DNA from: Candidatus Aldehydirespiratoraceae bacterium
Lineage (GTDB): Bacteria > Actinomycetota > Acidimicrobiia > Acidimicrobiales > Aldehydirespiratoraceae
Assembly (NCBI GenBank): GCA_965214565.1
Contig: OZ243951.1
Location: 1,017 to 65,016 of the forward strand
DNA: 64,000 bases
Reading direction: 5' to 3'
Positions 7,848 to 22,508 of the stretch are shown in pieces (positions within the stretch are counted from its first letter, which is position 1; each line of letters opens with the position of its first letter). The position numbers were made by a program, and so were the translations under genes. The notes below the pieces were generated by a model. The model saw only the letters and a program-made list of their open reading frames with translations, made no database searches and was not told where the DNA came from.

Positions 7848-10800
7848 CTAGTCGTTGTCTTTGATGGTGCCGGTGGCGTAGGTGAAGTTGAAGATGGTGG
7901 TGAAGGTGCTCTCGTAGGCGTACATTCTGATTGTCTCGTCACCTTCAACTGTGTTGTCGTCGATGATCGGCACAACGATCTCGACTTGGGTTTCTCCTGG
8001 GTTGATCGTGAATGTCCGGTAGGGGATGGTGAAGTCTTGGTTGTATTTGGCGGTGATGTCGAACGCGCCGTAGCCGAGTTTGATTTCTTGGTCGCTGGCT
8101 CTTGAGAGCGTCGCGACGAAACGCAGCCCTTGGGGGTCGCCTTCAGAGGCCGAAGCGTCGGCCACGGTCAGGGTTATCGGGCCTGACTGGGCTGGGGCGC
8201 CGTTGGACGTGTCGCCGTCGGATGTGTCGGTGGTGTCGGCGGCTGGGGGATCGTCGTCGTCGGAGATCGTGACCGTGGCGGCACCGTTGTTCGACGACAC
8301 GGTGTAGCCGTTGCCAGAGTTGATGGTGGCGGTGACCGTCCCGTCGGGTTCGTCGGTGCTGTCGTCGTTAGTCGCGATGATGAGGGTGTAGGTGCCTGAG
8401 GTGGGGATGGTGACGGTCTGGGTGCCGGTCGACGCGAAATCACCGCTCTGGGTGATCTTGACGGTCACGTCGAGAGCAGCGGAGGGCGCGGGGTCGGCGG
8501 TGATCGTGAACGTTGCGTCGTCGCCTTCGGTGACGTCAGCGCTGGCAGTGATGCTGATCTCGGGGACGTCGTTGTCGGCGACTGCGACGGTCGCCGTGTT
8601 CTGTGTGGATGACACGGTGTAGCCGGCACCGGTGTTGATGGTGGCGGTGACCGTCCCGTCGGGTTCGTCGGTGCTGTCGTCGCCGGTGGCGACGGTGAGG
8701 GTGTAGGTGCCTGAGGTGGGGATGGTGACGGTCTGGGTGCCGGTGGACGTGAACGCGCCGGTTTGGGTGATCTTGACGGCCACGCTGAGTGCTGTGTGCG
8801 GTGCAGGATCCGCAGTGATCGTGAACGTGGCGTCTTCGCCTTCGGTGACGTCTGCGCCGGCAGTGATGACTATTTCGGGGACATCGTCGTCTGACACGGC
8901 GACGGTCGCCGCGCCCTGTGTGGACGACACCGTGTAGCCGGAACCAATGTTGATGGCGGCAGCAACCGTCCCGTCAGGCTCGTCGACGCTGTCGTCGGTG
9001 GTGGCCACGGTCAGCGTGTAGCTGCCTGTTGTGGGGATGGTGACGGTCTGGGTGCCGGTGGACGTGAACGCGCCGGTTTGGGTGATCTCAATGGTGACGT
9101 CGAGATCGGCTGTGGGTGCGGGGGCAGCGGTGATCGTGTACGTGGCGTCGCCGCCTTCGGTCACATCTGTGCCTGCGGTAATGCTGATTTCGGGTTCGAC
9201 GGGCGGTGGGGCCGGTTTGGCGGTTTGGGCTTGTTCGATGCATTCCAAAGCCTCCCGGAACGGCCGCCATCCCGACCAGCGGGTTTCGCTTTGGCTTGCC
9301 TCGGCCGCGGTGAACGGTTTGAGTTGGGTGTCGGCAATGTCGCCGAACGCGATGAGCACTCGACGCCAGTTCTTGCCGTAGCCCGGAGCGCGGTGCTTGT
9401 TGAGGTCGTAGTATCTGCGGGCGAGTTTCAGCGTGTCGTCAGGAACACATTCGGGTGGCACAGCGGGCGGGTCGCTGCTGGTTTCATCCTCACCGGAGAG
9501 GTCGACGGTCGTGGTGGCGGCGAGGCTATCGAGGTACACGGCGGTTCCGCTGTCGGTGTCATATCCAGGGGTGACAGTGACAGTGACCGTGACGGGTCCG
9601 GCGATGCCGTGATCGAGCGTGTGGCTGGTCGTGGCGATGCCGTCGAACACGCCGGCGGACTGTGCGGTTCCGTCGGCGGCTTCGGCGCTGTAGGCCACGA
9701 GGTACTTGTCAGCGTCCGCTACCGCATCCCAGGAAACGTCGACGCTGGTACCGCCGCCGGTTGCGAGCGTGAGGTTCGCGACGACCGCCGCCGGTTCCGG
9801 CGGCGCCTCGGCGGGCTGTGGGACATCCCGGGACGGGCTATTCTGCGGTGTGTGCTGGTTCGTGTACTGACGGCGCAAAAACGGACAGTCGGAGGGCCAA
9901 TGGAACCGGCCGCTGGAGACGTAATGGGTTTGTAGATTCAAGGTGTCCGCAGTGACGACCGGGGCGTTCGGGTTGCCCCACTCGCGCATATGCCATGTGT
10001 ACGGACCGCCGGGGGTCTGCTTAGAAAAGTACACCAGCCGATAAAACTTGGTGGAATCCAGGTCGCGGTACTGGCCGATCTCGAACTCCTTAGGATAGTG
10101 GCGGAACACCTCGCCGAGGCTGAACGCCCGCATCTTGTCCACCGTCGCCCGCCGGAACCCACCACCAGTCCCGGAATGCACCACGTCCGCGCACTGGGTG
10201 CCCTCAACGTGCAGACTGCGGGTGTTGTGCACCCAGATAACCCGATAACACTTCCACGAAATCCGTGTCTGCGTGTGCCGGTCACCACCGTAGCCACCGT
10301 CCCAACAACCCGCAGCAGTCGGCTCGCCGTCATGGAACGTGAACGTCAACGACTGTTGTGGCGTGCCGTTCCGCGTGAACGAGATCCCCGTGAACGTCAA
10401 CGGGTCATACCCGGCGATCTGAGTCACGTTGATCGTCACCGTCACATCACTCGCAGGTTGTGACGACAGGCGCACGAAATAGTCCAGCACCTCCCCCGGG
10501 GTGATATCAGGCGCAGGACCCAACCCCGGCGTCGACGTCAACGTGTTCGGGCGGAAAATCCCCCACCCGCGATTAGCCCGCTTATGCGCGTTGTACGCAG
10601 CCTCGTCATAGGTACGGCGATACTCGAACACCTCCAACTCCGGCGCGTCGGTCACCAACACCGACACAGTGCCCAGGCTGGAGCTGCTGTAACCGCCGCC
10701 GGACGCGGTCTGCGTCAAATTGAACCTCCGGTTGCGATTATCGCTGGGCTCGTCGACTGCGGTGACGGTAACCTGCTGTGGTTCGGTGTAGTTCGACGCC

Positions 10801-13800
10801 GTGAACGTCAGAGTCGCCGGACTGATCGTCGCCGCCCCCGAACCCACCGACTCGATCACCGTGAACGTCGACGGATCAAACACCGCCCGGCCCGCCGCGG
10901 TGCCGATTGTGACCGTCGTGGAGCCCCCCGACGGGGCGGTGGTCAACCGCACGCAGTAAGTGGTCTTGCCGCCGTTCTCGGTGATCCTGAGACTCGACAC
11001 GCTCAACACGGTGCTCTGCGCCGAGCAGGCCGAGGCGTCGTCGTCGTCGATGGTCAGATCCACCTCCGAGGACGCCGAGACGACCATCGCGCCGCCGCCG
11101 GTCACCACCGTCCCCGAACCCGTGCCCGTCACCACGTTCAACGTCGCGGTGATCTCCTCGTCGGAGGTATCGCCGTCGTCGCCAGCTGCGGTGGCGATCG
11201 GTGTGAGCGTCACCGTCGCGGTCTGCACGGTGTTGGAGTCCGAGCCGGTGAACGTCACCCGCGCCGTCGTCGAAGTCGCGTTGGCGAGCGCCACACCAGT
11301 GCCCGACGCGGTGACCGCGAAGTCCGGGGTGGCGTGGCCGGGCAGCCGGGCGCCGGTGCCCGAAGCCAGCGTGATCGTCGCCACCACCGACTCGCCCGAG
11401 ATCAGCGGGCGGCCCAACGACACCGTCAGCGTCGCGGTGTCAGAAGCGTCCTGCTCGCTCATGGCCGTGTCCGATGCCGTCAGCGTCACCTCGGTTGCCT
11501 CGTCGTCGGTGATCCGCACCTTGTCGGATCCGTTGGTGCCCGAAACGGTGTATGAGTCGGTGCTCGAGCAGCCAGCGGTGCTCGACGGCACCGCGGTGAC
11601 GGTGATGACGCTGTCCAAATCATCCGCAGCGGTGTCGGTCCACGCCACGTCGATCGACCCGGTCTGCACGCCGGCTTGGAAGCTGACGGTTTTGATGCCC
11701 TCGTCGGCTGCGGCGACCCGGTCAGTGTCGCCCGACTCTTCGACGCGCACGCATACCGTCAGAGCGGTCGCGGGCTGGGCGTCCAATGTCAGCGGGAACG
11801 AAACGGTGGCGTCGGCCTCGGACTTTTCGACCTCGTCGTCGTCGTTGCGGTTCTCGCCCTCGCCGGTCATCAGCCGCACTGAAACCTCAGGTCCCGTCGC
11901 GGAGGGGTCGATCTTGAACACCGGCGACATCGCCAACATCCGCAGCTCGGTGGTGTTTACCGTGTTTGCCGTGTGGTCGAGCGGCGTGTTGCCCAACGTA
12001 TCCATGCTTCCGAATCTGGGATTGCTGTCACCGAGTGTGTGGCCGCTCACCTCTACGCCGGCGTCGCTGCTGCCTGTCCAATAGATCGACATTTGCGCCG
12101 TGGCCGCTTCGTTGGTGGCGTGGCTTCTGTTGTTGGTGCCGGTGTCCCAGGAGGCGTCGTAGAAATCGAAATAGTTGTCGGCCACTTTGTCTGTCGACGG
12201 CGCAGCGAGCCAATAGATCTTGGTGCCGCTGTCCGAATCGCTGGTAGATCTATCGGTGTAGCCGCCTGCGTTGGAGTTCAGCGCCGGGTCCCACATGGCG
12301 GTGTTCTCGCGTGCATCCACGGTGGCGGTGCTGGCGATCACCGACACCAGCCCCGAGTAGGGCAACAGGGCGGCGTGGCCGTGCTCGGCGACCACCAGCT
12401 GGGCCCAGTCGTTGTAGGCGTCGATGTCGGTGGAGACGGCGGTGCGTCTCTGCGAAGTGATGAAGATCAGCCGGAACTCGTCGCCCGCGGACAAACCCGA
12501 CGGCGCCAACGCCCAGTCGGCTGCCACCTCAATATCGCCGGTGTCGTCGTCGACGAGTACGACGTTGATCGGGCCGCCGGTCTGCTCACCGACGTTGATG
12601 CCGCCGCTGGCGGTCGCGCCCGACCCGAAATCGACGATCACATACGGTTGGGTGCGGACATCATTATCAACCGGCGTCAACCGCAGCGTCGCCGTCGTCG
12701 CGCCCGCGGTGAACACCACCGCCGGATTCTGCGCCGAGTGCGGCCCCGACGTGTCCAACGCGACGCCGGTCTGCGTCGTCGGTGCCAACCCGAAGGTGTA
12801 ATCGGCAGTGACGGCCGCTCCGGTCACAGTCAAAGGCACCGTAAGCGTCTCAGAGCCGCTCAGCGGCCCGTCCAGCCTGAGGGTGATGGTGCGGTAGCCG
12901 GTGCTGTTGCCGGCGCCCTCCACCGCGTTGCCGTCGGCGTCGCCGTCAGAACCCAACATGGCCACGGCGACCGCCGAGGCGTCGTTATCGTTGACCCGCA
13001 CCTCAGCAGACGCAGCAGACGAGTCGATCCTGTAGTTGTCGCTGTTTTGCAGGGTAATGGTGATCGGCCCCGACGTCTCGACGATGAAATCCTCAACAGT
13101 CGGCACTGTGAACGTGGCCGAGCTCTGCCCCGCGGGCAGGGTGCGGGTGCGGTTCCCCTGCTGGCCCGCAGCAACGAAATCGGCGCCCGACGCGTCGGCG
13201 ATGCCCACGTTGACGGTGAGGTTGCGGTCTGGCGCGGTGCTGGCGGTGACGGTGAACTCTGCCGCGGTGCCCTCGGTGACCGCCGCGCCCGGCGTGATGC
13301 TCAGCGTCACGTCCTCGTCGTCGACGGTCGCCGCGACGCTGCCGGTTACCGACCCGTAATCGGCGCCCGACGACGAATGCGACAAAGTCACCGAATCATC
13401 GGTCAGATCAGTGTCATGCACGCCGCGCACCGTGACCTTGCGGCCGATATACCAGTTCGAAGCATCGAACTGCACCGAAGCCTGGTCGCCGTTCGTGCTG
13501 TCGTCGGCGTCGAGCGTCAACGTCGCCGATGTCTGGCCCGACACCGTCACCGTCACCGTCACCGTGCCCGACGGTTCCGTGGCGAGCCGCAGCCGATACG
13601 CAGCTGTGCCGCCCTCGTCCACCTCAACAGTGGACGGTACGACCAGACCCGGCGCCGTGCGGTCCTGATCCGCGATGTACAGCGTCGTTCGGTCAGGGGT
13701 TGCCGCGGTCGCCCGCGGCGTCTCACTGCTCGCGATCCTCACGACGATCGTCTCATCGGCTTCCTGCATGCTGTCAGCAATAATGGGAATGCTGATGGTG

Positions 13801-16800
13801 TGCGTGCCCGACGCGTTCCCCGAAGGGATCGTCACACTCGTCGACGGGGCGGTGTAGTCGCTGCCGTCAGTGGCGGTCCCCCCAAACGCCAGAGTCAAGT
13901 CGATTTGCTGCTCGGTTTGCTGGTTCAGCGTGAGATTCACATCGAAGGTGCCGCTGTCCTCAAGCACCCAATACTCCGGTTGCTCAAAACCGATCTCGAC
14001 GGCGTCATCGTCGATGATCGTCACAATCGTGACACCACGGGCCCGCAAATAGTCAGGCGAGGCAACGAGACCCACACGAAACGACTCCGAATCCTCGAAC
14101 ACCCCGTCCTCACGGGTCGCTACGTCAAAAGCCACCGACGTCTGCCCCGCGGGGATCATCACCGACGCCTCGCCCGCGGTGAAATCCTGCCCCGCGGTCG
14201 CACCGCCGCCCTCCTCGACGATGTAGGTGAGCGTCAGATCCGCGGTCGGCGCAGGACTGGCCATCAACGTCAACCTGACCGTCTCGCCCTCATTAGCCGA
14301 ACTATTTCCTCTAGTAAAGGCCACCTCCGGCATATCAGCCGACGCCACGGTCTTGACAATCTCCGACACCGCGTAGAACCGGTTCTCGCTGGCGGCCGCC
14401 TCAGTGCCAGACGACAAAGACTGCGACGCGCTGCCGCTGCCGACCCGCGCGCCTGGACCGTAAGCCGGCGTCGCGGTGCCCAGCGGGTTGGAGCTGGTGG
14501 TGCAGTTGTTGTTCATCCCCGTCCACACCTTCGCCCCGTCACCCACACTGCCGTCCTCGTGGCGCAACCGGGTGGCATCCGCAGACGACCACCGGCCGGT
14601 CCACGCCTGATTGCACAACCGCCAATAGCTCGACGACACCTGCTCGCCGCCCGTCCCCAGCCAATACAACACTGTCCCCGAGTCCCTCGCCCTCGTCGTG
14701 CCGTCGGCAAAGCCGCCCGAGCCGCCATTGGCCGACGTGTCCCAGATGCCGACGTGGTTGCGGCCGTCCACGGTCGCAGTCGACACGAACGCCCTGAAGA
14801 AGCCGACATAAGGCAGCAAATCATCCCCGCCGTTGGCGACCGCCGCAGCGCGCACGAAATGGTCGTAATCCGCGATGTCGGTCGACGTCGCCAGCCCGCC
14901 CTCAGACGTCATGAACATCAACCGGTACTCCGCATTGTTTAACACCGCAGGACGGAAAGCCGTGCCCGGCGGCAGCACGATGTCGCCCGTCTCGTCGTCC
15001 ACCAACACCACGCCGATCGGGCCGCCGGTCGGAGTGTCCAAAGTGACACCACCGGAGCCGCTGGGCGTGCCGTAATCGACGATCACATACGGCTGCGTGC
15101 GGTCCGAGTTGTTCACCGGCATCAAACGCAATGTCGCGGTCTGCGCCCCCGCCGCGAACACCACCGCCGGGTTCTGCGCGCTGTTCGAGCCGGATGTGTT
15201 CAGCGACACGCCCGTCTGCGTGCTCGGCTGCAACGCGAACGTGTAATCAGTCGCCACAGTCGCGCCGACGACTGTCAGCGGCACCGTCACCTGTTCCGAG
15301 CCGGTCAACGCCCGGCCCAGAGTGAGCGTGATGGTCCGGTAGCCGGTGGTGCCAGGGCCGCCCTCGACGGCGTTACCGTCGCTGTCGCCGTCAGAAGCAG
15401 ACATCGTGACCGCGACCGGCGGCGTGTCGTCGTCGGTGATCGTCACGGTGGTGGTCGCCGGCATGCCCACCGTGTAGCCGGTGCCGCTCGCCAGTGTCAT
15501 GGTGAAGGTCTCGTCGCCCTCCACCGTGCTGTCGTCGGTGATGTTGACGCTGAAGGTGTGAGACGTCATGGCGGCGGGGAACGTGAACGTTGTCGGCGGC
15601 GCGGTGTAGTCCGACGCCTCCGTCGCGGTCTCCGCCTGCGAGTCGAGGTTCACCGTCAACGCCGACGACGGCGCGCTGCTCGCGTTCACCGTCACATCAA
15701 CGCTGCCGCCGTCCTCCGCTGCGCTGTACGCCGCCGAAGCAAACGTCAGCTCCGGCGTCGCGGCGGCCTCGACTTTGAACACCGGCGACATGGCCAGCAT
15801 CGGCAACGAATCATCCGACATCGCAGATGTGTCAGACAGCGGATTGCCAAGCGAAACACGAGCAACCGACGGCATAGTCGCGCCAAGCCGACGCGTCATA
15901 TTTGGGTCTTTCCTCCCGTCGTGGATGTGGCTGCCAGTCCAGAACCCTGCCGTAACGGTACGCGCAGCACCCGACTCGACAGTGTCGGCGCCGGACTGGT
16001 CCGCGCCGCCGTCCCAGGAACCATCGAAGAAATCGAAATAGTTGTCCGCGACCTTGTCCGACGACGGCTCAGCCAGCCAGTACACCTTCACCCCGCTGCT
16101 CGACGCGTTCGCCGAGCCGTCAGCCCACGCGCTTCCCGTGTGCATGCCAGCATTGACACGGGCATCGACTGTTGTGGTGCTGCCCATCACCCGCACCAGA
16201 CCCGCGTAAGGCTTGAGGCCAGCGTGACCGCCCGCGGCGACCACGCCTTGGGCCCACTCGTTGTACACGTCAATATCGGTCGACTCCGCAGTCCGAGTCT
16301 GCGACGTGATGAACATCAACCGAAACTCATCACCCCCCGACAACCCCGACGGCAACAACGGCCAATCAGCAGCAACCTCAAAATCGCCCGTCTCGTCGTC
16401 CACCAGCACCACACCCACCGGGTCGCCCGACACGGCACCCAGCGCCGCACCCGACGCGCTCGGCGCCCGCGAACCAGTGCCGTAGTCGACGATCACATAC
16501 GGCTGTGTACGGACGTTGTTATCGACCGGCATCAAACGCAAAGTCGCGGTCTGCGCTCCAGATGCGAACACCACCGCCGGGTTCTGCGCGCTGTTCGTGC
16601 CCGATGTGTTTAGCGACACGCCGGTGTTCGAGCCGCTCAGCCCGAAGGTGTAGTCATTGCTCGCGCCGACCGTCGCACCGGTCACAGTCAACGGCACCGT
16701 AACCGACTCACTACCGGTGAGCACCCGACCCAACGTCAAGGTGATGGTCCGATACCCCGTCGCGCCGCTGGCGCCTTCCACAGCGTTGCCGTTGGCATCA

Positions 16801-19800
16801 CCATCAGACCCCGCCATCGACACGGTGACAGGTCCGGGGGCTTTGATCGTGAAATCCGCGGACAGCGACGCTCCGTAAGGAACCGCCTTGGTCGCGGACA
16901 GCGACCGGCGCAACAGCCGACGGCCGACGTTGAGGGTGACTGGGTCATCGGCGGTGATCGCCGACCCCGAATACGACAGCACCACCTCCAAAGAACGATG
17001 CTTGGGCTGGCCGTGTACGTCGCTCATGGCCGCACCGAGCTCGGCACTGTTGACCGTCAACCCTGTCGGCGCCCCGGTGAACGTCAACAACGCCAGACCC
17101 GAAGCCGTCAACGATCCGCCGCTTCGCAGATTCCCGGCGCCTCGGTCGCCGCCTTCGGGTCCTAAGCCGTCGCCGTCGCCGACGCCGAAGAACGTGACAT
17201 GCTCAGGCGTCAAGGTGAGCGTGACAGTGCCGCCGCTGGCGAACGCGGACGACTGCACCTGCGCGGGTGTGACGCCCAGCGTCGGGGTCGTGTCGGTGTC
17301 AGCCACCCGCACCGTCACATTCCCACTCAACGCGTTGAAATCGTTGTCCGACGACGACGTGCTGTGCGAAATCGTCACCATCCGCGCCCCGCCGGTGTTG
17401 ATGGTGTTGTCGTCCACACCCGAAACCGTGACCTCTTGTCCGGTGTCCCAGTTCGTTGTCGTGAACGTCAACGAAGCCGGGTTGACCGCCGCGCCCACTG
17501 CCGCGGTGATCGCCACCGTCACATCCGCCGACGGCGCCTTGTTCAACTTCACCTCGTAGGTGTCGGTGTGGCCCGATTCCTCGCTCACCGCCACCCCCTC
17601 GCCGACGTCGAACACCAAGGCAGCCGACGGCACCACCGTGACATCCACCTGCGGCCCGACCATGTTCACCGGATACCTCGAACTGGCAGTACCCGCCGAG
17701 CTCGACACAGAATGGGTGACACCCCCGGCGCCTCCGCTGCCCCCGTTGATCGTGACGGTTTGTGCAGACATCCAGTTGCCGGCGTTGAACGACACGGTCA
17801 CGGGACTGACAGTCAGACTGCCGGAACTGTTGACAGCAGTGACATGCAACGTCACCGCGCCGCCCGGGTTGCTCGCCAACCGGATCCCGTACTCGGCGGT
17901 GTCGCCCTCATTCACCGACACCGCAACCGGCACAACCACAATCTTGTGACCGGCGTCGACGGTGGTCGCGGTCACGCTGTTGATCGGAATCTGGTGATAC
18001 GGGTTGCCAGCATCCGATACCTCCGCCGCATGGGAGACGGTGACAGTCTCCGCGGCGGAGTCGCCGTCGTTGACGGCGCGCAGCGTCACCGTCTGCGCCG
18101 AGCTCCAGTTCCCGGTATTGCCGTGAGTGAAAGTCAGCATCGACTGGTCGCCGGCCATGTCGCTGTCGGTGTCCACCGCCACCGCCGTCGCGTCGCCCGA
18201 GGACACCGTCACCACCACATTCGCGCCCGGATCAGAGTCGAGCACCACCGTGTAGGACATCTCCGCATCAGTGGCGTGAAGCTCAGTCAAAGTGACAGCA
18301 GACCCAGAAAGCGTCACACCAGCGGTGCCGTCGTCGTCGTCGGTGAGGGTGATCGTGGTCTCGGCGGTGCTGCCTGCCCGGGCGTCGACGGCGAGGGTGC
18401 CGTCGAGCTGCACTTTGAACGTTTCGGTGCTCTCGGCGGTGCCGTCATCCACCAGGTCGATGGTGAGGGTCTTGGTCGTGTCGCCGGTGGCGAATTCGAG
18501 GTAGCCGGACTGGGCGGTGTAGTCGGTCGGGTGGGCTGCGGTGCCATCCGCGGTGGTCCAGTAGATCGACAGGGGCACCGCTGTGGTCCCGGTCTTGGTG
18601 ACGGTGACGCCGATTGTGCCTGCGTCCTCGGCAGCGACGGCCGTCGCCGAGGCGAACGCGACGTTGGGCAGGTCGGCTTTGTCGGTGATGATGCCGATGC
18701 CTGTGCTCTTGCCGGCGGCGAGGCCCGGCGCGTCGGTGCCCGTCGGGGTGCCGAGAGTGACCCGGAAGTAGTGGTCGCCCTCATAGGTGCTGTCGTCGGT
18801 GGTCGCCACGGCGATGGTCGCGGTGGTGGCGCCCTGGGCGATGGTGACGCTGCCGGCGGTGTCGGCGAAATCAGAGGCGTCGGCGACGATGTGAGCGGGG
18901 TCGGTGGCGATGCCAAGGCCGTGGGCGAAGGTGTAGGGCACGGTGATGCCCCCGGTGGGGGCGGCCTCAGACATCGTCACGGTGAAGCTGACCGCGCTGC
19001 CTTCGGCTGCGCGAGAACGCGGCGTGATCTCCACAGCGCCGCCGACCACCTCGAACACAGACGTGGACAGCGCGTACAGCGGGCGCATCTCGGTGGCGGG
19101 CTCTGCGTCGGTGCAGGCCGGCGTCCGGGCGCGTATCGGCCCCAGCGGCGAGAACCTGCTGGAGTCGTTGCCGTCGAGCTTGCCGACGTGCACATTCGGT
19201 TCGCCGACCTGGCCCCGGTTGTGACCGCCAGTGCCGCCGGAGCAGAAGGCGTGGTTCGTTCGGTGGCCCTCCTCGGTACCGCCGGTCCAGTAACCGTCGG
19301 TATCGACAGTCGCGGCGGTGCCGTCGGCGTGGCGCGGCGACTCGCTGTCCCACGTACCGTCGATGAAATCGGGGCTGGCGTTGTCGGCGACCTTGTCGCC
19401 GCCCACCCAGTAGATCGGGTCGTTCGGCTGAACTCCCTCGTCGATCCGGTACATGTTGAACTGCGCCCGGTCACGGGCGCCGTAGGTTCCGGTTCCCCCC
19501 CCGTCGCCGAGGGTCGTGACGAGCCCGAAGAACGACTCGGCGTGCGGGACGAGCTCGGGGACGCCGCCGCCTTTGAGCTGGGCGCCGGTGATCTCGGCGC
19601 GCACGAAATCGTCGTAGACGGACCCTTGACGGCTGGTGGCGGCGGTCTCGCCGTTGGTGACATACAGCAGACGGAACGTGTCACCGACACCGACGCCCGA
19701 CGGCAGCAGCGGCCAGTCGAGGGGCACCTCGACGGTCTCTCCTGTGCTCGGCGGGGCCGCGTCGTCGTCTGCGATGCCGTACCAGGCTTGCGCGTCGGCC

Positions 19801-22508
19801 TGCGCTGCGGTGACGCCTCCGCCGAGGTTCGTTTGGGGGTTGAGATGTCTCTGCGGGGAGAACACTTTGCCGTCGTCGGTATAGTTGCGCACCGACTGGA
19901 GACCGCGGGGGAAGCTGATGTGGAACTCCTCGTCGGAGACGTCGCCGTCGTCGAAACCGTCTCGGGTTTTCAGCACGATCGTCGCGGTCTGGGCGCCGGC
20001 GCCAGCGAACTCCAGCCAGCGGAACCCGACATGCGCGGGCGTGTACCGGTTCACCGCCTCCACCGACACGCCCGTGCCGACAGCGGCCATCTCGAAATCG
20101 TTGTGATGGACCGGCCACGCCACGTTCGCGCTGTAACGCGGCCCACGAACCGAGCTGACCACATCGCACGCCACGTAATCCGCCCACCGCTCCAGCGACT
20201 CATCGCTCCAGTCTTGGAGGTTCAGGTCGCATTTCACATCAGGGTTCTGGCGATGCCCGGTCGCCTCCAGATACAACGGCACCCGCACCCACTCGTTCGC
20301 TGTGAGGGCGCGACCCAAGCTGATCGTCAGAGAACGGTCCACCCGAGTGGCGTCCCCCTCCACCATCACCTCAGAAATCTGGGTGCCCGAGGGGCTGGTA
20401 CGCACCCCTGTCCCGGCCATCGACACCTCGGTCGGGTCGTCGTCCACCAGCGTTAGGGGGTGGCTCACGTCGCCGATGCTGGCGTAGTTGCCGGCGCCGG
20501 TGACGGCGTGCGTGATCGTCAGCCCGATATCAGCCGCATCAGCATCGTTGTCCTCCGCCGACACCGTCACCGTCTGCGGCATGGGCCAATTCGACGGTGT
20601 GAACGTCAAAGAGGCGCCCGTCGTGATCGTCGCTTTGGTGGTGTCGCTGCTCGACACCGCCACGGTCACATTCGAGGTCGGCGCCGCGGAAAGCCGCACC
20701 TCATAGGAGTAGTCGCCGCCTACGGTGACGACCTTCTCCTCGATGTCGTATAACACGATACTGCCTTGCGTCCTCTCGACCACCGGCACGTTCTCGACGA
20801 TGTCTCCCTCCAAAAGCCGACCCCCGCCGTTGTCGATGACCGCGAGGCCTGCCTCCGCCTCGTTGAGCGTGATGCGATACAAGCGCTCAGCGAGACGCAC
20901 CGGCCCACAACCATCGCCAGAGCACACACCACCCGCCAAGTTCGTTGTGATGTGGTTCCCCTTCCACGGATCCGACGTCGGATAAGTCCTGACCACCAGA
21001 TTGTTGGTCGCGGTGTCACCGTCGTCAGTAGCCGCGGTCACCACCACCGTCGCCTCAGCCGCGGACGGTCCCGTGAACCTCAACTCGCCCGTCGCGCCAT
21101 CGGCCGAATCCGCATACGCCACGCCTTGCGGGCTGCCGTCGAGCGACAGCGAGAAATGCGTGCCCAGCGTCGCGCCCTGAAACGCGAGCGGCACCGTCAG
21201 CATCTCCCCCGCTGCCAGCCCACGACCCAACGTCACCCGGAACTTCGCGGTGTCCGTGCTGCTGCCCTCGGTCGCGACCTGGTCCGTCGTCGCGGCGTGA
21301 TGCAACTCGATCTCGGTCACCTCGTCGTCGCCGGTCACCGTCAACGGCACATCCGGCAACACGATGCCCGTGTATTCCGTCGGCACGGTGCTCGTGTTCG
21401 GGCACTTCACCGTCTGGGGTCCCAAGCCGACATCGATGCGGCAGTTGGTCGTGTCGTAGTAGTCCTCGTCGTACTGATAGACCGTGAACACAAGATTGCC
21501 CGACAGCTCCCCGCCAGGAGTGTCCACCGCATTGTTGAACGCCGCAATTGACACCTCGAACTCCGACACCCACTCATCTTGCTCAACCGTGCCGCTTCCG
21601 TCGACGTCGAGTCCGGTGCCGTCGGGGATGTTGACTCCGTCCAGGTTGATCGAGAACGCGTGACGAGGCGTCGTGGGACCCGCCCCCGCGTGCTGGGCGA
21701 AACCGCCCCTGATGTTCGCGATCGGCGTTTCAGTCCCCAGCTTGCCCATCGTCGTCGTATCAACGAGGCCCACCACCACGATGCTCTGAGTCGGACGGCT
21801 CTCATAGGGAATGGTGACCGTGATGGTGTCGGACACGTCGCGGTTGTCGTTGTTGGTGAGCCGCTCCATCATCGTCGTCGAGCCACCGCTCACAGTGATC
21901 GACGCCCCCGTCCCGGTCAGCGTCGTGTCCGACACATCGGTGATCGTCACCGTCCAATCACCCAAAACCGTGCCGCCCTCACAATCAGCGGTCGTACACA
22001 GCTGTACCCCGAACGTCTCATCATCAGAATCGCCGTCGGAATGGGCCTCCACCTCGAAACGCAGACGCTCGCGCAAAGAGTTCACAGACGCCCGGCGCCC
22101 CTCACCCGCCGCGACCTCAACCAGACCATCGCGACGCCAATGAACCTTGAACGTGATATCCGACGGTTCGGCCGTGTACCCCGTCAAAGGCTTGAAAAAC
22201 ACGTAATACGCCGGACGATCCGGCAAATTCGAAATCTCGAACTGGCGAGTCTGACCCTCCTCGATCACCGTGCGATGCAAAAACGCCCGGCTATACGCCG
22301 ACACGCCCGACGAGCCCGCCGACTGCGCCGCAGCCTCAGAAACCCCCAGACCCGCACCCGACAACACCGGAACCGGTGCCACCACCAACAACGACGCCAA
22401 CAGCGCCACCGCCAAGCCGCACACCAACCCCCGACGGCCAACCCGCGACCGAACGAGAAAGGCTAAGCCCCCCCCCCCCCCCCGCAGGAGAAGACCCAAA
22501 CACACCAC
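7848..22508 (-). CDS. giant secreted Calx-beta / beta-sandwich repeat protein (4,886 aa), adhesin- or surface-layer-like
   Basis: One uninterrupted 14,661-nt ORF. The N-terminus has a basic stretch (RSRVGRRG), a hydrophobic core (LAVALLASLLVVAPVPVL) and AAAQ. Many Calx-beta-type motifs are present, for example ITDDSTVEGDETFTMTL, IIDDNTVEGDETIRMYA, LVDDGTAESTETFKVQL and TTDDSTYEGDHYFRVTL. Other beta-sandwich repeats carry an LTFT..NW...QTVTV signature. Composition is acidic and rich in T/A/V/G. I saw no LPXTG, SLH, RTX or C-terminal TM segment. Confidence 0.9.
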   Translation of the reverse strand: MVCLGLLLRGGGGGLAFLVRSRVGRRGLVCGLAVALLASLLVVAPVPVLSGAGLGVSEAAAQSAGSSGVSAYSRAFLHRTVIEEGQTRQFEISNLPDRPAYYVFFKPLTGYTAEPSDITFKVHWRRDGLVEVAAGEGRRASVNSLRERLRFEVEAHSDGDSDDETFGVQLCTTADCEGGTVLGDWTVTITDVSDTTLTGTGASITVSGGSTTMMERLTNNDNRDVSDTITVTIPYESRPTQSIVVVGLVDTTTMGKLGTETPIANIRGGFAQHAGAGPTTPRHAFSINLDGVNIPDGTGLDVDGSGTVEQDEWVSEFEVSIAAFNNAVDTPGGELSGNLVFTVYQYDEDYYDTTNCRIDVGLGPQTVKCPNTSTVPTEYTGIVLPDVPLTVTGDDEVTEIELHHAATTDQVATEGSSTDTAKFRVTLGRGLAAGEMLTVPLAFQGATLGTHFSLSLDGSPQGVAYADSADGATGELRFTGPSAAEATVVVTAATDDGDTATNNLVVRTYPTSDPWKGNHITTNLAGGVCSGDGCGPVRLAERLYRITLNEAEAGLAVIDNGGGRLLEGDIVENVPVVERTQGSIVLYDIEEKVVTVGGDYSYEVRLSAAPTSNVTVAVSSSDTTKATITTGASLTFTPSNWPMPQTVTVSAEDNDADAADIGLTITHAVTGAGNYASIGDVSHPLTLVDDDPTEVSMAGTGVRTSPSGTQISEVMVEGDATRVDRSLTISLGRALTANEWVRVPLYLEATGHRQNPDVKCDLNLQDWSDESLERWADYVACDVVSSVRGPRYSANVAWPVHHNDFEMAAVGTGVSVEAVNRYTPAHVGFRWLEFAGAGAQTATIVLKTRDGFDDGDVSDEEFHISFPRGLQSVRNYTDDGKVFSPQRHLNPQTNLGGGVTAAQADAQAWYGIADDDAAPPSTGETVEVPLDWPLLPSGVGVGDTFRLLYVTNGETAATSRQGSVYDDFVRAEITGAQLKGGGVPELVPHAESFFGLVTTLGDGGGTGTYGARDRAQFNMYRIDEGVQPNDPIYWVGGDKVADNASPDFIDGTWDSESPRHADGTAATVDTDGYWTGGTEEGHRTNHAFCSGGTGGHNRGQVGEPNVHVGKLDGNDSSRFSPLGPIRARTPACTDAEPATEMRPLYALSTSVFEVVGGAVEITPRSRAAEGSAVSFTVTMSEAAPTGGITVPYTFAHGLGIATDPAHIVADASDFADTAGSVTIAQGATTATIAVATTDDSTYEGDHYFRVTLGTPTGTDAPGLAAGKSTGIGIITDKADLPNVAFASATAVAAEDAGTIGVTVTKTGTTAVPLSIYWTTADGTAAHPTDYTAQSGYLEFATGDTTKTLTIDLVDDGTAESTETFKVQLDGTLAVDARAGSTAETTITLTDDDDGTAGVTLSGSAVTLTELHATDAEMSYTVVLDSDPGANVVVTVSSGDATAVAVDTDSDMAGDQSMLTFTHGNTGNWSSAQTVTLRAVNDGDSAAETVTVSHAAEVSDAGNPYHQIPINSVTATTVDAGHKIVVVPVAVSVNEGDTAEYGIRLASNPGGAVTLHVTAVNSSGSLTVSPVTVSFNAGNWMSAQTVTINGGSGGAGGVTHSVSSSAGTASSRYPVNMVGPQVDVTVVPSAALVFDVGEGVAVSEESGHTDTYEVKLNKAPSADVTVAITAAVGAAVNPASLTFTTTNWDTGQEVTVSGVDDNTINTGGARMVTISHSTSSSDNDFNALSGNVTVRVADTDTTPTLGVTPAQVQSSAFASGGTVTLTLTPEHVTFFGVGDGDGLGPEGGDRGAGNLRSGGSLTASGLALLTFTGAPTGLTVNSAELGAAMSDVHGQPKHRSLEVVLSYSGSAITADDPVTLNVGRRLLRRSLSATKAVPYGASLSADFTIKAPGPVTVSMAGSDGDANGNAVEGASGATGYRTITLTLGRVLTGSESVTVPLTVTGATVGASNDYTFGLSGSNTGVSLNTSGTNSAQNPAVVFASGAQTATLRLMPVDNNVRTQPYVIVDYGTGSRAPSASGAALGAVSGDPVGVVLVDDETGDFEVAADWPLLPSGLSGGDEFRLMFITSQTRTAESTDIDVYNEWAQGVVAAGGHAGLKPYAGLVRVMGSTTTVDARVNAGMHTGSAWADGSANASSSGVKVYWLAEPSSDKVADNYFDFFDGSWDGGADQSGADTVESGAARTVTAGFWTGSHIHDGRKDPNMTRRLGATMPSVARVSLGNPLSDTSAMSDDSLPMLAMSPVFKVEAAATPELTFASAAYSAAEDGGSVDVTVNASSAPSSALTVNLDSQAETATEASDYTAPPTTFTFPAAMTSHTFSVNITDDSTVEGDETFTMTLASGTGYTVGMPATTTVTITDDDTPPVAVTMSASDGDSDGNAVEGGPGTTGYRTITLTLGRALTGSEQVTVPLTVVGATVATDYTFALQPSTQTGVSLNTSGSNSAQNPAVVFAAGAQTATLRLMPVNNSDRTQPYVIVDYGTPSGSGGVTLDTPTGGPIGVVLVDDETGDIVLPPGTAFRPAVLNNAEYRLMFMTSEGGLATSTDIADYDHFVRAAAVANGGDDLLPYVGFFRAFVSTATVDGRNHVGIWDTSANGGSGGFADGTTRARDSGTVLYWLGTGGEQVSSSYWRLCNQAWTGRWSSADATRLRHEDGSVGDGAKVWTGMNNNCTTSSNPLGTATPAYGPGARVGSGSASQSLSSGTEAAASENRFYAVSEIVKTVASADMPEVAFTRGNSSANEGETVRLTLMASPAPTADLTLTYIVEEGGGATAGQDFTAGEASVMIPAGQTSVAFDVATREDGVFEDSESFRVGLVASPDYLRARGVTIVTIIDDDAVEIGFEQPEYWVLEDSGTFDVNLTLNQQTEQQIDLTLAFGGTATDGSDYTAPSTSVTIPSGNASGTHTISIPIIADSMQEADETIVVRIASSETPRATAATPDRTTLYIADQDRTAPGLVVPSTVEVDEGGTAAYRLRLATEPSGTVTVTVTVSGQTSATLTLDADDSTNGDQASVQFDASNWYIGRKVTVRGVHDTDLTDDSVTLSHSSSGADYGSVTGSVAATVDDEDVTLSITPGAAVTEGTAAEFTVTASTAPDRNLTVNVGIADASGADFVAAGQQGNRTRTLPAGQSSATFTVPTVEDFIVETSGPITITLQNSDNYRIDSSAASAEVRVNDNDASAVAVAMLGSDGDADGNAVEGAGNSTGYRTITLRLDGPLSGSETLTVPLTVTGAAVTADYTFGLAPTTQTGVALDTSGPHSAQNPAVVFTAGATTATLRLTPVDNDVRTQPYVIVDFGSGATASGGINVGEQTGGPINVVLVDDDTGDIEVAADWALAPSGLSAGDEFRLIFITSQRRTAVSTDIDAYNDWAQLVVAEHGHAALLPYSGLVSVIASTATVDARENTAMWDPALNSNAGGYTDRSTSDSDSGTKIYWLAAPSTDKVADNYFDFYDASWDTGTNNRSHATNEAATAQMSIYWTGSSDAGVEVSGHTLGDSNPRFGSMDTLGNTPLDHTANTVNTTELRMLAMSPVFKIDPSATGPEVSVRLMTGEGENRNDDDEVEKSEADATVSFPLTLDAQPATALTVCVRVEESGDTDRVAAADEGIKTVSFQAGVQTGSIDVAWTDTAADDLDSVITVTAVPSSTAGCSSTDSYTVSGTNGSDKVRITDDEATEVTLTASDTAMSEQDASDTATLTVSLGRPLISGESVVATITLASGTGARLPGHATPDFAVTASGTGVALANATSTTARVTFTGSDSNTVQTATVTLTPIATAAGDDGDTSDEEITATLNVVTGTGSGTVVTGGGAMVVSASSEVDLTIDDDDASACSAQSTVLSVSSLRITENGGKTTYCVRLTTAPSGGSTTVTIGTAAGRAVFDPSTFTVIESVGSGAATISPATLTFTASNYTEPQQVTVTAVDEPSDNRNRRFNLTQTASGGGYSSSSLGTVSVLVTDAPELEVFEYRRTYDEAAYNAHKRANRGWGIFRPNTLTSTPGLGPAPDITPGEVLDYFVRLSSQPASDVTVTINVTQIAGYDPLTFTGISFTRNGTPQQSLTFTFHDGEPTAAGCWDGGYGGDRHTQTRISWKCYRVIWVHNTRSLHVEGTQCADVVHSGTGGGFRRATVDKMRAFSLGEVFRHYPKEFEIGQYRDLDSTKFYRLVYFSKQTPGGPYTWHMREWGNPNAPVVTADTLNLQTHYVSSGRFHWPSDCPFLRRQYTNQHTPQNSPSRDVPQPAEAPPEPAAVVANLTLATGGGTSVDVSWDAVADADKYLVAYSAEAADGTAQSAGVFDGIATTSHTLDHGIAGPVTVTVTVTPGYDTDSGTAVYLDSLAATTTVDLSGEDETSSDPPAVPPECVPDDTLKLARRYYDLNKHRAPGYGKNWRRVLIAFGDIADTQLKPFTAAEASQSETRWSGWRPFREALECIEQAQTAKPAPPPVEPEISITAGTDVTEGGDATYTITAAPAPTADLDVTIEITQTGAFTSTGTQTVTIPTTGSYTLTVATTDDSVDEPDGTVAAAINIGSGYTVSSTQGAATVAVSDDDVPEIVITAGADVTEGEDATFTITADPAPHTALSVAVKITQTGAFTSTGTQTVTIPTSGTYTLTVATGDDSTDEPDGTVTATINTGAGYTVSSTQNTATVAVADNDVPEISITASADVTEGDDATFTITADPAPSAALDVTVKITQSGDFASTGTQTVTIPTSGTYTLIIATNDDSTDEPDGTVTATINSGNGYTVSSNNGAATVTISDDDDPPAADTTDTSDGDTSNGAPAQSGPITLTVADASASEGDPQGLRFVATLSRASDQEIKLGYGAFDITAKYNQDFTIPYRTFTINPGETQVEIVVPIIDDNTVEGDETIRMYAYESTFTTIFNFTYATGTIKDND
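8250..9194 (-). repeat. three tandem 315-bp (105-aa) Calx-beta-like repeats
   Basis: Units span 9194-8880, 8879-8565 and 8564-8250. Each begins PEI(S/V)ITA..DVTEG.DATFTITA.PAP and ends ATV.VSDDDV. The exact 315-nt period is confirmed by the antisense ORFs starting at 8392 and 8707, which are nearly identical; a third antisense ORF at 9031 repeats the same peptide from its fifth residue, 9 nt in from the extrapolated unit position 9022. Confidence 0.9.
11907..12971 (-). repeat. internal module D (355 aa)
   Basis: VAVAMLGSDGDADGNAVEG...YRTITLRLDG...RTQPYVIVDFG...DEFRLIFITS...IYWLAAPSTDKVADNYFDFYDASWD...IYWTGSSD...MLAMSPVFKID. Confidence 0.85.
14352..15416 (-). repeat. internal module C (355 aa)
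   Basis: VAVTMSASDGDSDGNAVEG...YRTITLTLGR...RTQPYVIVDYG...EYRLMFMTS...VLYWLGTGGEQVSSSYW...VWTGMNNN...FYAVSEIVK. Its DNA is very similar to module B over the first half. Confidence 0.85.
15768..16829 (-). repeat. internal module B (354 aa)
   Basis: VTVSMAGSDGDANGNAVEG...YRTITLTLGR...RTQPYVIVDYG...DEFRLMFITS...VYWLAEPSSDKVADNYFDFFDGSWD...FWTGS...MLAMSPVFKVE. Confidence 0.85.
19044..20429 (-). repeat. internal module A (divergent, 462 aa): beta-sandwich plus endostatin/DUF1554-like unit
   Basis: Starts EVSMAGTG. Contains WPLLPSGVGVGDTFRLLYVTN...YWVGGDKVADNASPDFIDGTWD...YWTGGTEEG. Ends LYALSTSVFEVV. Confidence 0.7.
22468..22483 (-). repeat. homopolymeric tract, C16 on the plus strand (G16 in the gene sense)
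   Basis: Counted directly: ggctaag + 16 c + gcaggag. As annotated it lies in codons 9-14 of the giant ORF (R-G-G-G-G-G). Confidence 0.95.

Follow-up and report, generated by a model that had tools for sequence, protein, structure and literature searches.

The window analysed here is a 64,000-nucleotide stretch of the genome of a Candidatus Aldehydirespiratoraceae bacterium (contig OZ243951.1), in which one 14.7-kb open reading frame (ORF) on the minus strand (7848..22508) encodes a giant repeat protein of 4886 amino acids (aa). The N-terminus of the protein is signal-peptide-like, predicting secretion. A local hidden Markov model (HMM) detects about 21 beta-sandwich repeats along the chain, and a Pfam scan of the whole protein reports six Calx-beta stretches, none of which lies inside the segment studied here. 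This segment comprises residues 3961-4426 (window 9231-10628) and is located between the last rod repeat, which ends ...VLVTDAPELEV (residues 3950-3960), and a series of 105-aa repeats that begins at residue 4439. An initial annotation of the locus had described it as one non-repetitive globular unit of about 485 aa, the best candidate of the protein for an enzymatic or receptor-binding function. We find that the segment is four stacked modules, A, B, C and D, rather than a single globular domain: its first ~170 residues belong, in diverged form, to the rod's own beta-sandwich superfamily, and its third part is a predicted fibronectin type III (FN3) domain.

Every peptide quoted in the initial annotation is present in the minus-strand translation; a plus-strand reading of 9195-10650, meaningless and interrupted by stops, was rejected. 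The abrupt change of composition reported there is real. Compared with the rest of the protein, the segment is raised in Cys (1.3 versus 0.4%), Trp (2.4 versus 0.9%), His (3.0 versus 1.3%), Arg (6.4 versus 3.5%) and Tyr (4.5 versus 2.3%), and its combined content of Cys, Trp, His, Arg, Lys, Tyr and Phe (24.0%) is the maximum over all 466-aa intervals of the protein, the best of which starts at residue 3958 (median 12.4%; best non-overlapping interval 19.7%). The annotated drop in GC content is also found, with 52.7% at 10010-10100 against 65.2% for the whole gene. The dip falls in module B, and the GC content there is 0.487 versus 0.566 at codon positions 1 and 2, while that at position 3 (GC3) is 0.787, within one standard deviation of the gene mean (0.824 +/- 0.059). 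Because GC3 is normal, the dip is due to amino-acid composition, and its reading as a sign of foreign DNA was rejected. The segment had further been called the only globular-looking, cysteine-containing part of the protein, which is wrong, as 18 of the 24 cysteines lie outside it and are mostly paired. Four domains of ~200 aa with the pattern WPLLPSG...FRLxF[IV]T..., each with its own Cys pairs, are encoded at window 11907-20429 on the minus strand; we take them to be endostatin/C-type-lectin-like.

Module A (residues 3955-4132; 10113..10646; this and all features below lie on the minus strand) consists of an N-terminal extension and, after it, a Calx-beta-like beta-sandwich. A phmmer search with the last rod repeat matches residues 3999-4066 (E=4.7e-4), and an HMM iterated on the protein's own repeats matches residues 3994-4068 (E=1.6e-17) in addition to 20 other repeats. 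An AlphaFold2 (AF2) model of A and B, built on 11 homologues, has a mean predicted local distance difference test score (pLDDT) of 54 overall and of 70-80 in the sandwich core of A. With this model as query, Foldseek retrieves the Calx-beta structures 3e9t, 3ead, 3fso, 3fq4 and 2dpk, among them Calx-beta CBD1 and integrin beta4, with template-modelling (TM) scores on the target of 0.57-0.64 and a probability of 1.0. From the HMM and Foldseek matches it therefore follows that A is a diverged sibling of the rod repeats and no new fold; A is a diverged Calx-beta/rod-type beta-sandwich. The Pfam Calx-beta model gives no significant match to A, and the segment scanned alone against Pfam returns weak fn3 only. 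By direct reading, the neighbouring repeats end in ...VSDDDVPE or ...ITDDDT, A ends in ...TVDKMRAFSLGE, and A lacks the acidic Ca2+-binding end cluster of Calx-beta domains (DDD/ExDE-type).

The N-terminal extension of A is conserved, reading APELEVFEYRR...RPNTLTSTPG here and APE[LV]E...RPxTVxSxPG in the family. A copy of its first 73 residues, 90% identical, occurs at the very end (residues 2678-2750 of 2782) of another giant protein, from a metagenome (P0022), where a recombination junction and a truncated gene are both conceivable. Residues Cys4068, Cys4087, Cys4106, His4111, Gly4115-4117 and Arg4119 are invariant in 34 of 34 distinct relatives, some of which are only 35-45% identical; His4111, Gly4115-4117 and Arg4119 make up an H..GGGxR motif, which we count as a surface motif. 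A fourth conserved Cys is located 20-31 residues past GGGxR in most relatives and 86-88 residues past it in the clade that includes this protein (the P0001 clade). In this protein it is Cys4208, part of a CPFLRR motif, which together with a Pro/Gln-rich linker (TPQNSP...PPEPA) occupies 9789..9887.

Module B (residues 4133-4207; 9888..10112) separates the fourth conserved Cys from the last strand of A, and is rich in Trp, Tyr, Phe and His as well as in beta structure. Its length is ~75 aa in the P0001 clade, and it is enlarged to ~150 aa in P0009 and P0010; P0011-P0014 and 20+ more distant members of the A family lack it. B is, on this distribution, a lineage-specific insertion in the loop ahead of the fourth Cys of A. 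AF2 places four strands in B with low to medium confidence (mean pLDDT of 29-78 in 10-residue blocks). Searched alone, B has no match in Pfam, NCBIfam or PDB sequences, and beta-sandwich matches predominate in the Foldseek result for the multi-domain model.

Module C (residues 4241-4340; 9489..9788) scores 15.6 bits against PF00041, where the cut-off is 25. An fn3 match (E<=1) is obtained in 12 of 12 diverse family members of C, with a best E of 5.5e-6, and the family profile retrieves from PDB an FN3con fusion (E=1.4e-5), FN3con (0.0022), PTPRF (0.0038) and tenascin-R (0.022). In addition, core residues W24 and Y33 of the module are invariant in the family. These profile matches identify C as a divergent FN3 domain, in line with the FN3-like unit proposed initially.

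Module D (residues 4353-4426; 9231..9452) has Pro-rich linkers on both sides and is bracketed by Cys4354 and Cys4423. The AF2 model of its ~72 residues, built on 15 aligned copies, predicts four helices with a mean pLDDT of 84.9 and a predicted TM score (pTM) of 0.77. Together with the co-occurrence of the two cysteines described below, the model supports the Cys-bracketed helical piece of the initial annotation. The fold has no match in PDB (best E=1.6, TM 0.32-0.36) or among viral models (best E=1.9), and the D profile has no match among PDB sequences (best E=0.1). Pfam yields nothing for the module alone at E<=10, nor on D in 10 diverse carrier proteins, and NCBIfam yields no match; the DUF6727 tags that Pfam places on D-bearing paralogues sit upstream of D, not on it, and were discarded. 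In searches of Pfam, NCBIfam and PDB sequences with the whole segment, B and D, the only returns are weak fn3 and a 45-residue HCF-1 chain. Neither D nor the A subfamily is described in the papers searched on giant adhesins and fn3 proteins of sponge symbionts. D is an uncatalogued module, having matched none of the known modules with which it was compared. The earlier statement that the family of the segment is unrecognised thus stands for B and D, but not for C, which belongs to the common FN3 class.

The bracketing cysteines of D were compared in 228 distinct copies. Both are present in 186 copies, neither in 41 and a single one in 1; among the 41 copies without them, 26 carry an outward-shifted pair. 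This both-or-neither pattern in 227 of the 228 copies is strong covariation evidence for a disulfide, predicted to link Cys4354 to Cys4423 and thereby to tie the N- and C-termini of D together. Across 45 sequences of 26-60% identity, W36 and W69 are invariant, and R38, V39, L40, T55, A59, W66, G68 and L76 are conserved in at least 90%.

In its own 3.25-Mb genome, D occurs in 42 copies distributed over 20 ORFs, with 1-4 copies per protein, at either end, on secreted proteins that differ in their other domains. The paralogous copies are 65-85% identical, and poly-Pro linkers and the 105-aa repeat border most of them. The genome has a single copy each of A, B and this FN3 domain; the description of the segment as non-repetitive accordingly holds for these three and fails for D, which is among the most repeated modules of the genome. 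In the protein studied here, D is followed by three of the 105-aa Calx-beta-like repeats (8250..9194), the same repeat that flanks D in the paralogous proteins, and the chain ends in a further Calx-beta domain (residues 4776-4886; 7851..8183; ending ...ATGTIKDND). In this genome 14 ORFs end, at their extreme C-terminus, in such a domain (...ATGTI[TK]DND; 50-53% identity). All 14 carry D, and they have in common an arrangement of D, the 105-aa repeat and the terminal Calx-beta domain. The terminal domain is a candidate for a shared C-terminal sorting or anchoring end.

Several proteins of the same genome carry a diverged copy of D directly after the signal peptide. A longer diverged D-like module in this position characterises a family of 700-1400-aa proteins (C1:1499207-1501918, 1503769-1505949, 1690672-1693158, 2294914-2297223 and 1707157-1711299), with the pattern C...AYRxLIxLGD...LPAWTG...W.GW...L.CLE and, in some carriers, poly-Thr linkers. 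A second diverged helical flavour (...VTGWRDAL....IKRWNRxLxxLGVDTGxTPMT...RWDR...) is found in P0010 (L078 4001-16834) and at C1:1711634-1715665 of this genome; it matches the D profile (E about 1e-8) and likewise follows an FN3 domain. Outside the window, the same genome contains a single minus-strand open frame of 24,478 codons (G000:C1:2824376-2897812), with many 105-aa repeats and, at the very C-terminal end, a weak D-like match.

The whole segment is conserved in 13 homologous giant Calx-beta proteins, one of them from Candidatus Poriferisodalis sp., at 41-76% identity (by another count 41-80%). A scan of 1.84 billion representatives returned 319 matches, most of which cover FN3 and D or D alone and few of which reach A, and among 170 proteins collected D is present in 152, in 236 copies in total. 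The relatives have A, then a linker, FN3 and D, and this shared order identifies A-FN3-D as a recurring cassette.

A pattern scan of one genome per species, covering 185,579 species, found 146 D relatives. The best 80 of these 146 matches are all in metagenome-assembled genomes (MAGs) of Acidimicrobiia or Chloroflexota, at 47-86% identity; the Chloroflexota among these 80 are Dehalococcoidia, Tepidiformaceae and 'Aldehydirespirator', and the Acidimicrobiia include Poriferisodalis, Poriferisocius and Spongiisociaceae, which are sponge-symbiont names. Isolate names of the form 'jk18x..bins' are of the type used for the Ircinia sponge MAG set (PMC9531527). Five Chloroflexota MAGs hold 42, 59, 22, 8 and 9 D matches. 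In the Chloroflexota MAG G002 (OZ219805.1), some of the D matches are confined to very short frames or interrupted by in-frame stops (for example C3:1754488-1754724 and C3:2418998-2419126), which suggests decaying copies beside about 50 intact ones. None of 300 evenly sampled Actinomycetota genomes yielded D, and weak matches were obtained in 4 of 300 sampled Chloroflexota and in 4 of 17 congeners; A with B was found in 1 of the 17 congeners, at 42% identity. D is thus multiplied on a large scale in secreted proteins of sponge symbionts from two phyla, and is rare or was not found in the other genomes sampled.

The similarity between phyla is high where it occurs. In one Dehalococcoidia MAG, A and B are 59-62% identical to those of our protein in three giant ORFs that keep the same A-B-...-D order, and D is 55-67% identical across phyla. 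Taken jointly, A and D (59-67%) resemble their counterparts in the other phylum more closely than do HrcA (33-38%) and LepA (55-56%), flanking housekeeping proteins compared against the same MAGs. The gene studied here has lepA on one side and hrcA-dnaJ on the other. Its giant homologues are not between lepA and hrcA and occupy unrelated, non-syntenic contexts, and the gene context therefore gives no functional hint. Taken together, the identity of A and D, above that of HrcA and LepA, the non-synteny and the distribution argue that the cassette as a whole, or failing that its modules, spread horizontally among bacteria that share the sponge habitat. A literature search on giant adhesins and horizontal transfer of fn3 proteins in sponge symbionts returned only general enrichment studies.

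From these results we read the segment as a probable cassette of four parts that would serve binding or docking and not catalysis, placed at the junction of the rod and the C-terminal section of a giant secreted adhesin-like protein. No catalytic family or motif was found for any part in Pfam, NCBIfam or PDB. D is small and conserved and is carried in 1-4 copies, at either end, by 20 otherwise different secreted proteins, and it is for this reason that we read it as a putative docking or binding module, which by analogy would fix many different surface proteins to one common partner. Candidates for this partner would be the cell envelope, a sister module of the same protein family and a component of the sponge matrix. 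The sharing of D across phyla favours equally a shared partner (the sponge matrix) and a gene-borne one (either of two sister modules, the 105-aa repeat and the terminal Calx-beta domain), and lends less support to a lineage-specific cell-wall polymer. A and the FN3 domain may serve as rigid, disulfide-stabilised spacers, and B, variable and aromatic-rich, as a possible specificity element.

Several points weigh against this reading and against the sponge setting that we give it. The low confidence of the A+B model leaves room for a small active site, the alignment behind the D model is shallow (15 similar sequences), and the absence of a fold match for D covers PDB and viral models only. The sponge origin of most of the MAGs is taken from their names. 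Finally, strong constraint on a short domain might partly explain the high identity of D between phyla.

In an alternative reading, the specific contact would be made by A and B, with B displayed on a disulfide-closed loop of A to recognise a host or partner molecule and D reduced to a generic connector. That A, B and this FN3 domain are single-copy in the genome fits such a ligand-specific head, as does the variation of B between clades (absent, ~75 aa or ~150 aa), and B is, by direct reading, aromatic-rich in the manner of many sugar- or protein-binding surfaces. However, B is not placed at a tip but within the chain, with ~680 residues between it and the C-terminus, its model is of low confidence, and the four domains likened above to endostatin and C-type lectins are better candidates for a head. 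We regard a head formed by A and B as unlikely.

Less likely still is a purely architectural role, in which A, FN3 and D, as rigid spacers or hinges, would govern length and flexibility without any specific partner. The position of the cassette between rod repeats and further repeats and the Pro-rich linkers that flank each module agree with it, and beta-sandwich and FN3 modules are commonly spacers. The conservation of D, however, both among paralogues and across phyla, far exceeds what a spacer needs, and its strongly conserved positions include the surface-type aromatic and charged residues W36, R38, W66 and W69.

Four cysteines (Cys4068, Cys4087, Cys4106 and Cys4208) and one invariant His (His4111) within about 140 residues of A also raise the question of a metal site, for example for Zn, in place of disulfides. 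This is very improbable in a protein that has a signal peptide and is extracellular, and whose cysteines elsewhere are paired; in extracellular, seawater-like conditions Cys pairs normally oxidise, and direct reading of A reveals no CxxC-type metal-motif spacing. The enzymatic function put forward in the initial annotation, which would make the segment, chiefly its Cys/His/Trp-rich A and B, a hydrolase or oxidoreductase domain, could appeal to the unusual composition, to the invariance of His4111 and three cysteines among the relatives and to a B model too uncertain to establish a fold, but it finds no enzyme-family match in Pfam, NCBIfam or PDB, A aligns and folds like non-catalytic Calx-beta/rod repeats, B is dispensable in most family members and the conserved Cys pattern fits extracellular disulfides, so that we give it hardly any credence.

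Returning to the binding or docking cassette, a wider and tentative proposal is that D might be the docking unit of an extracellular assembly system common to sponge symbionts of different phyla, a possibility that we put forward with considerable doubt. Dozens of different giant proteins would plug via D into one common partner, either a component of the sponge matrix or a sister module (the 105-aa repeat and the terminal Calx-beta domain are examples), and the resulting coat or mesh would mark the cells as sponge residents, D being in effect a transferable 'address tag' for the sponge mesohyl. The proposal likens D to dockerin-cohesin or SLH systems, to which its fold is unrelated.

Two open questions are how sponges distinguish their resident symbionts from bacteria that serve as food, and how symbionts stay in the mesohyl. 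Work to date has counted catalogued 'eukaryote-like' domains, for example ankyrin, fn3, cadherin and Calx-beta. In addition to these, the giant Calx-beta/fn3 proteins have conserved parts that are uncatalogued, the Cys-stapled sandwich subfamily A and the four-helix module D, the latter being among the most multiplied protein modules of these genomes. With 72 residues and a well-folding prediction, D is easy to express and allows a direct search for its partner, which makes the question of attachment and recognition testable. D is furthermore a candidate genomic marker for life as a sponge symbiont, and an example of genes shared between phyla inside a single host habitat.

The whole giant protein belongs to the known Calx-beta/fn3 class of 'eukaryote-like' proteins. 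Calx-beta 'eukaryote-like' proteins are enriched in sponge symbionts (PMC11706023, PMC9531527), and Calx-beta and fn3 proteins are statistically enriched in the sponge-symbiotic Poriferisodalaceae (PMC11706023). A shares the beta-sandwich fold of Calx-beta domains (PF03160; CBD1 and CBD2 of Na+/Ca2+ exchangers, integrin beta4) and aligns to the protein's own Calx-beta-type repeats, but differs in that Pfam does not recognise it, in the lack of an acidic DDD/E cluster, and in its four conserved cysteines, its H..GGGxR motif, its N-terminal extension and, in this clade, the 75-aa insertion. As regards FN3 (PF00041), each of the 12 family members of C matches the N-terminal half of the model, and C also matches consensus FN3 proteins in PDB, whereas its C-terminal half (VTVTVTPGY...LAATTTV) is atypical and this copy is sub-threshold.

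For D, the closest comparison is with SLH, CWB2 and dockerin modules. Like them, D is small, is carried by many otherwise different secreted proteins of one organism, in 1-4 copies per protein and at either end, and is more conserved than its neighbours. D has no sequence or fold similarity to them, and the likeness, drawn by analogy, would be functional only. Where SLH is a helix-loop-helix and the dockerin is EF-hand-like, D is instead predicted to be a disulfide-stapled four-helix unit.

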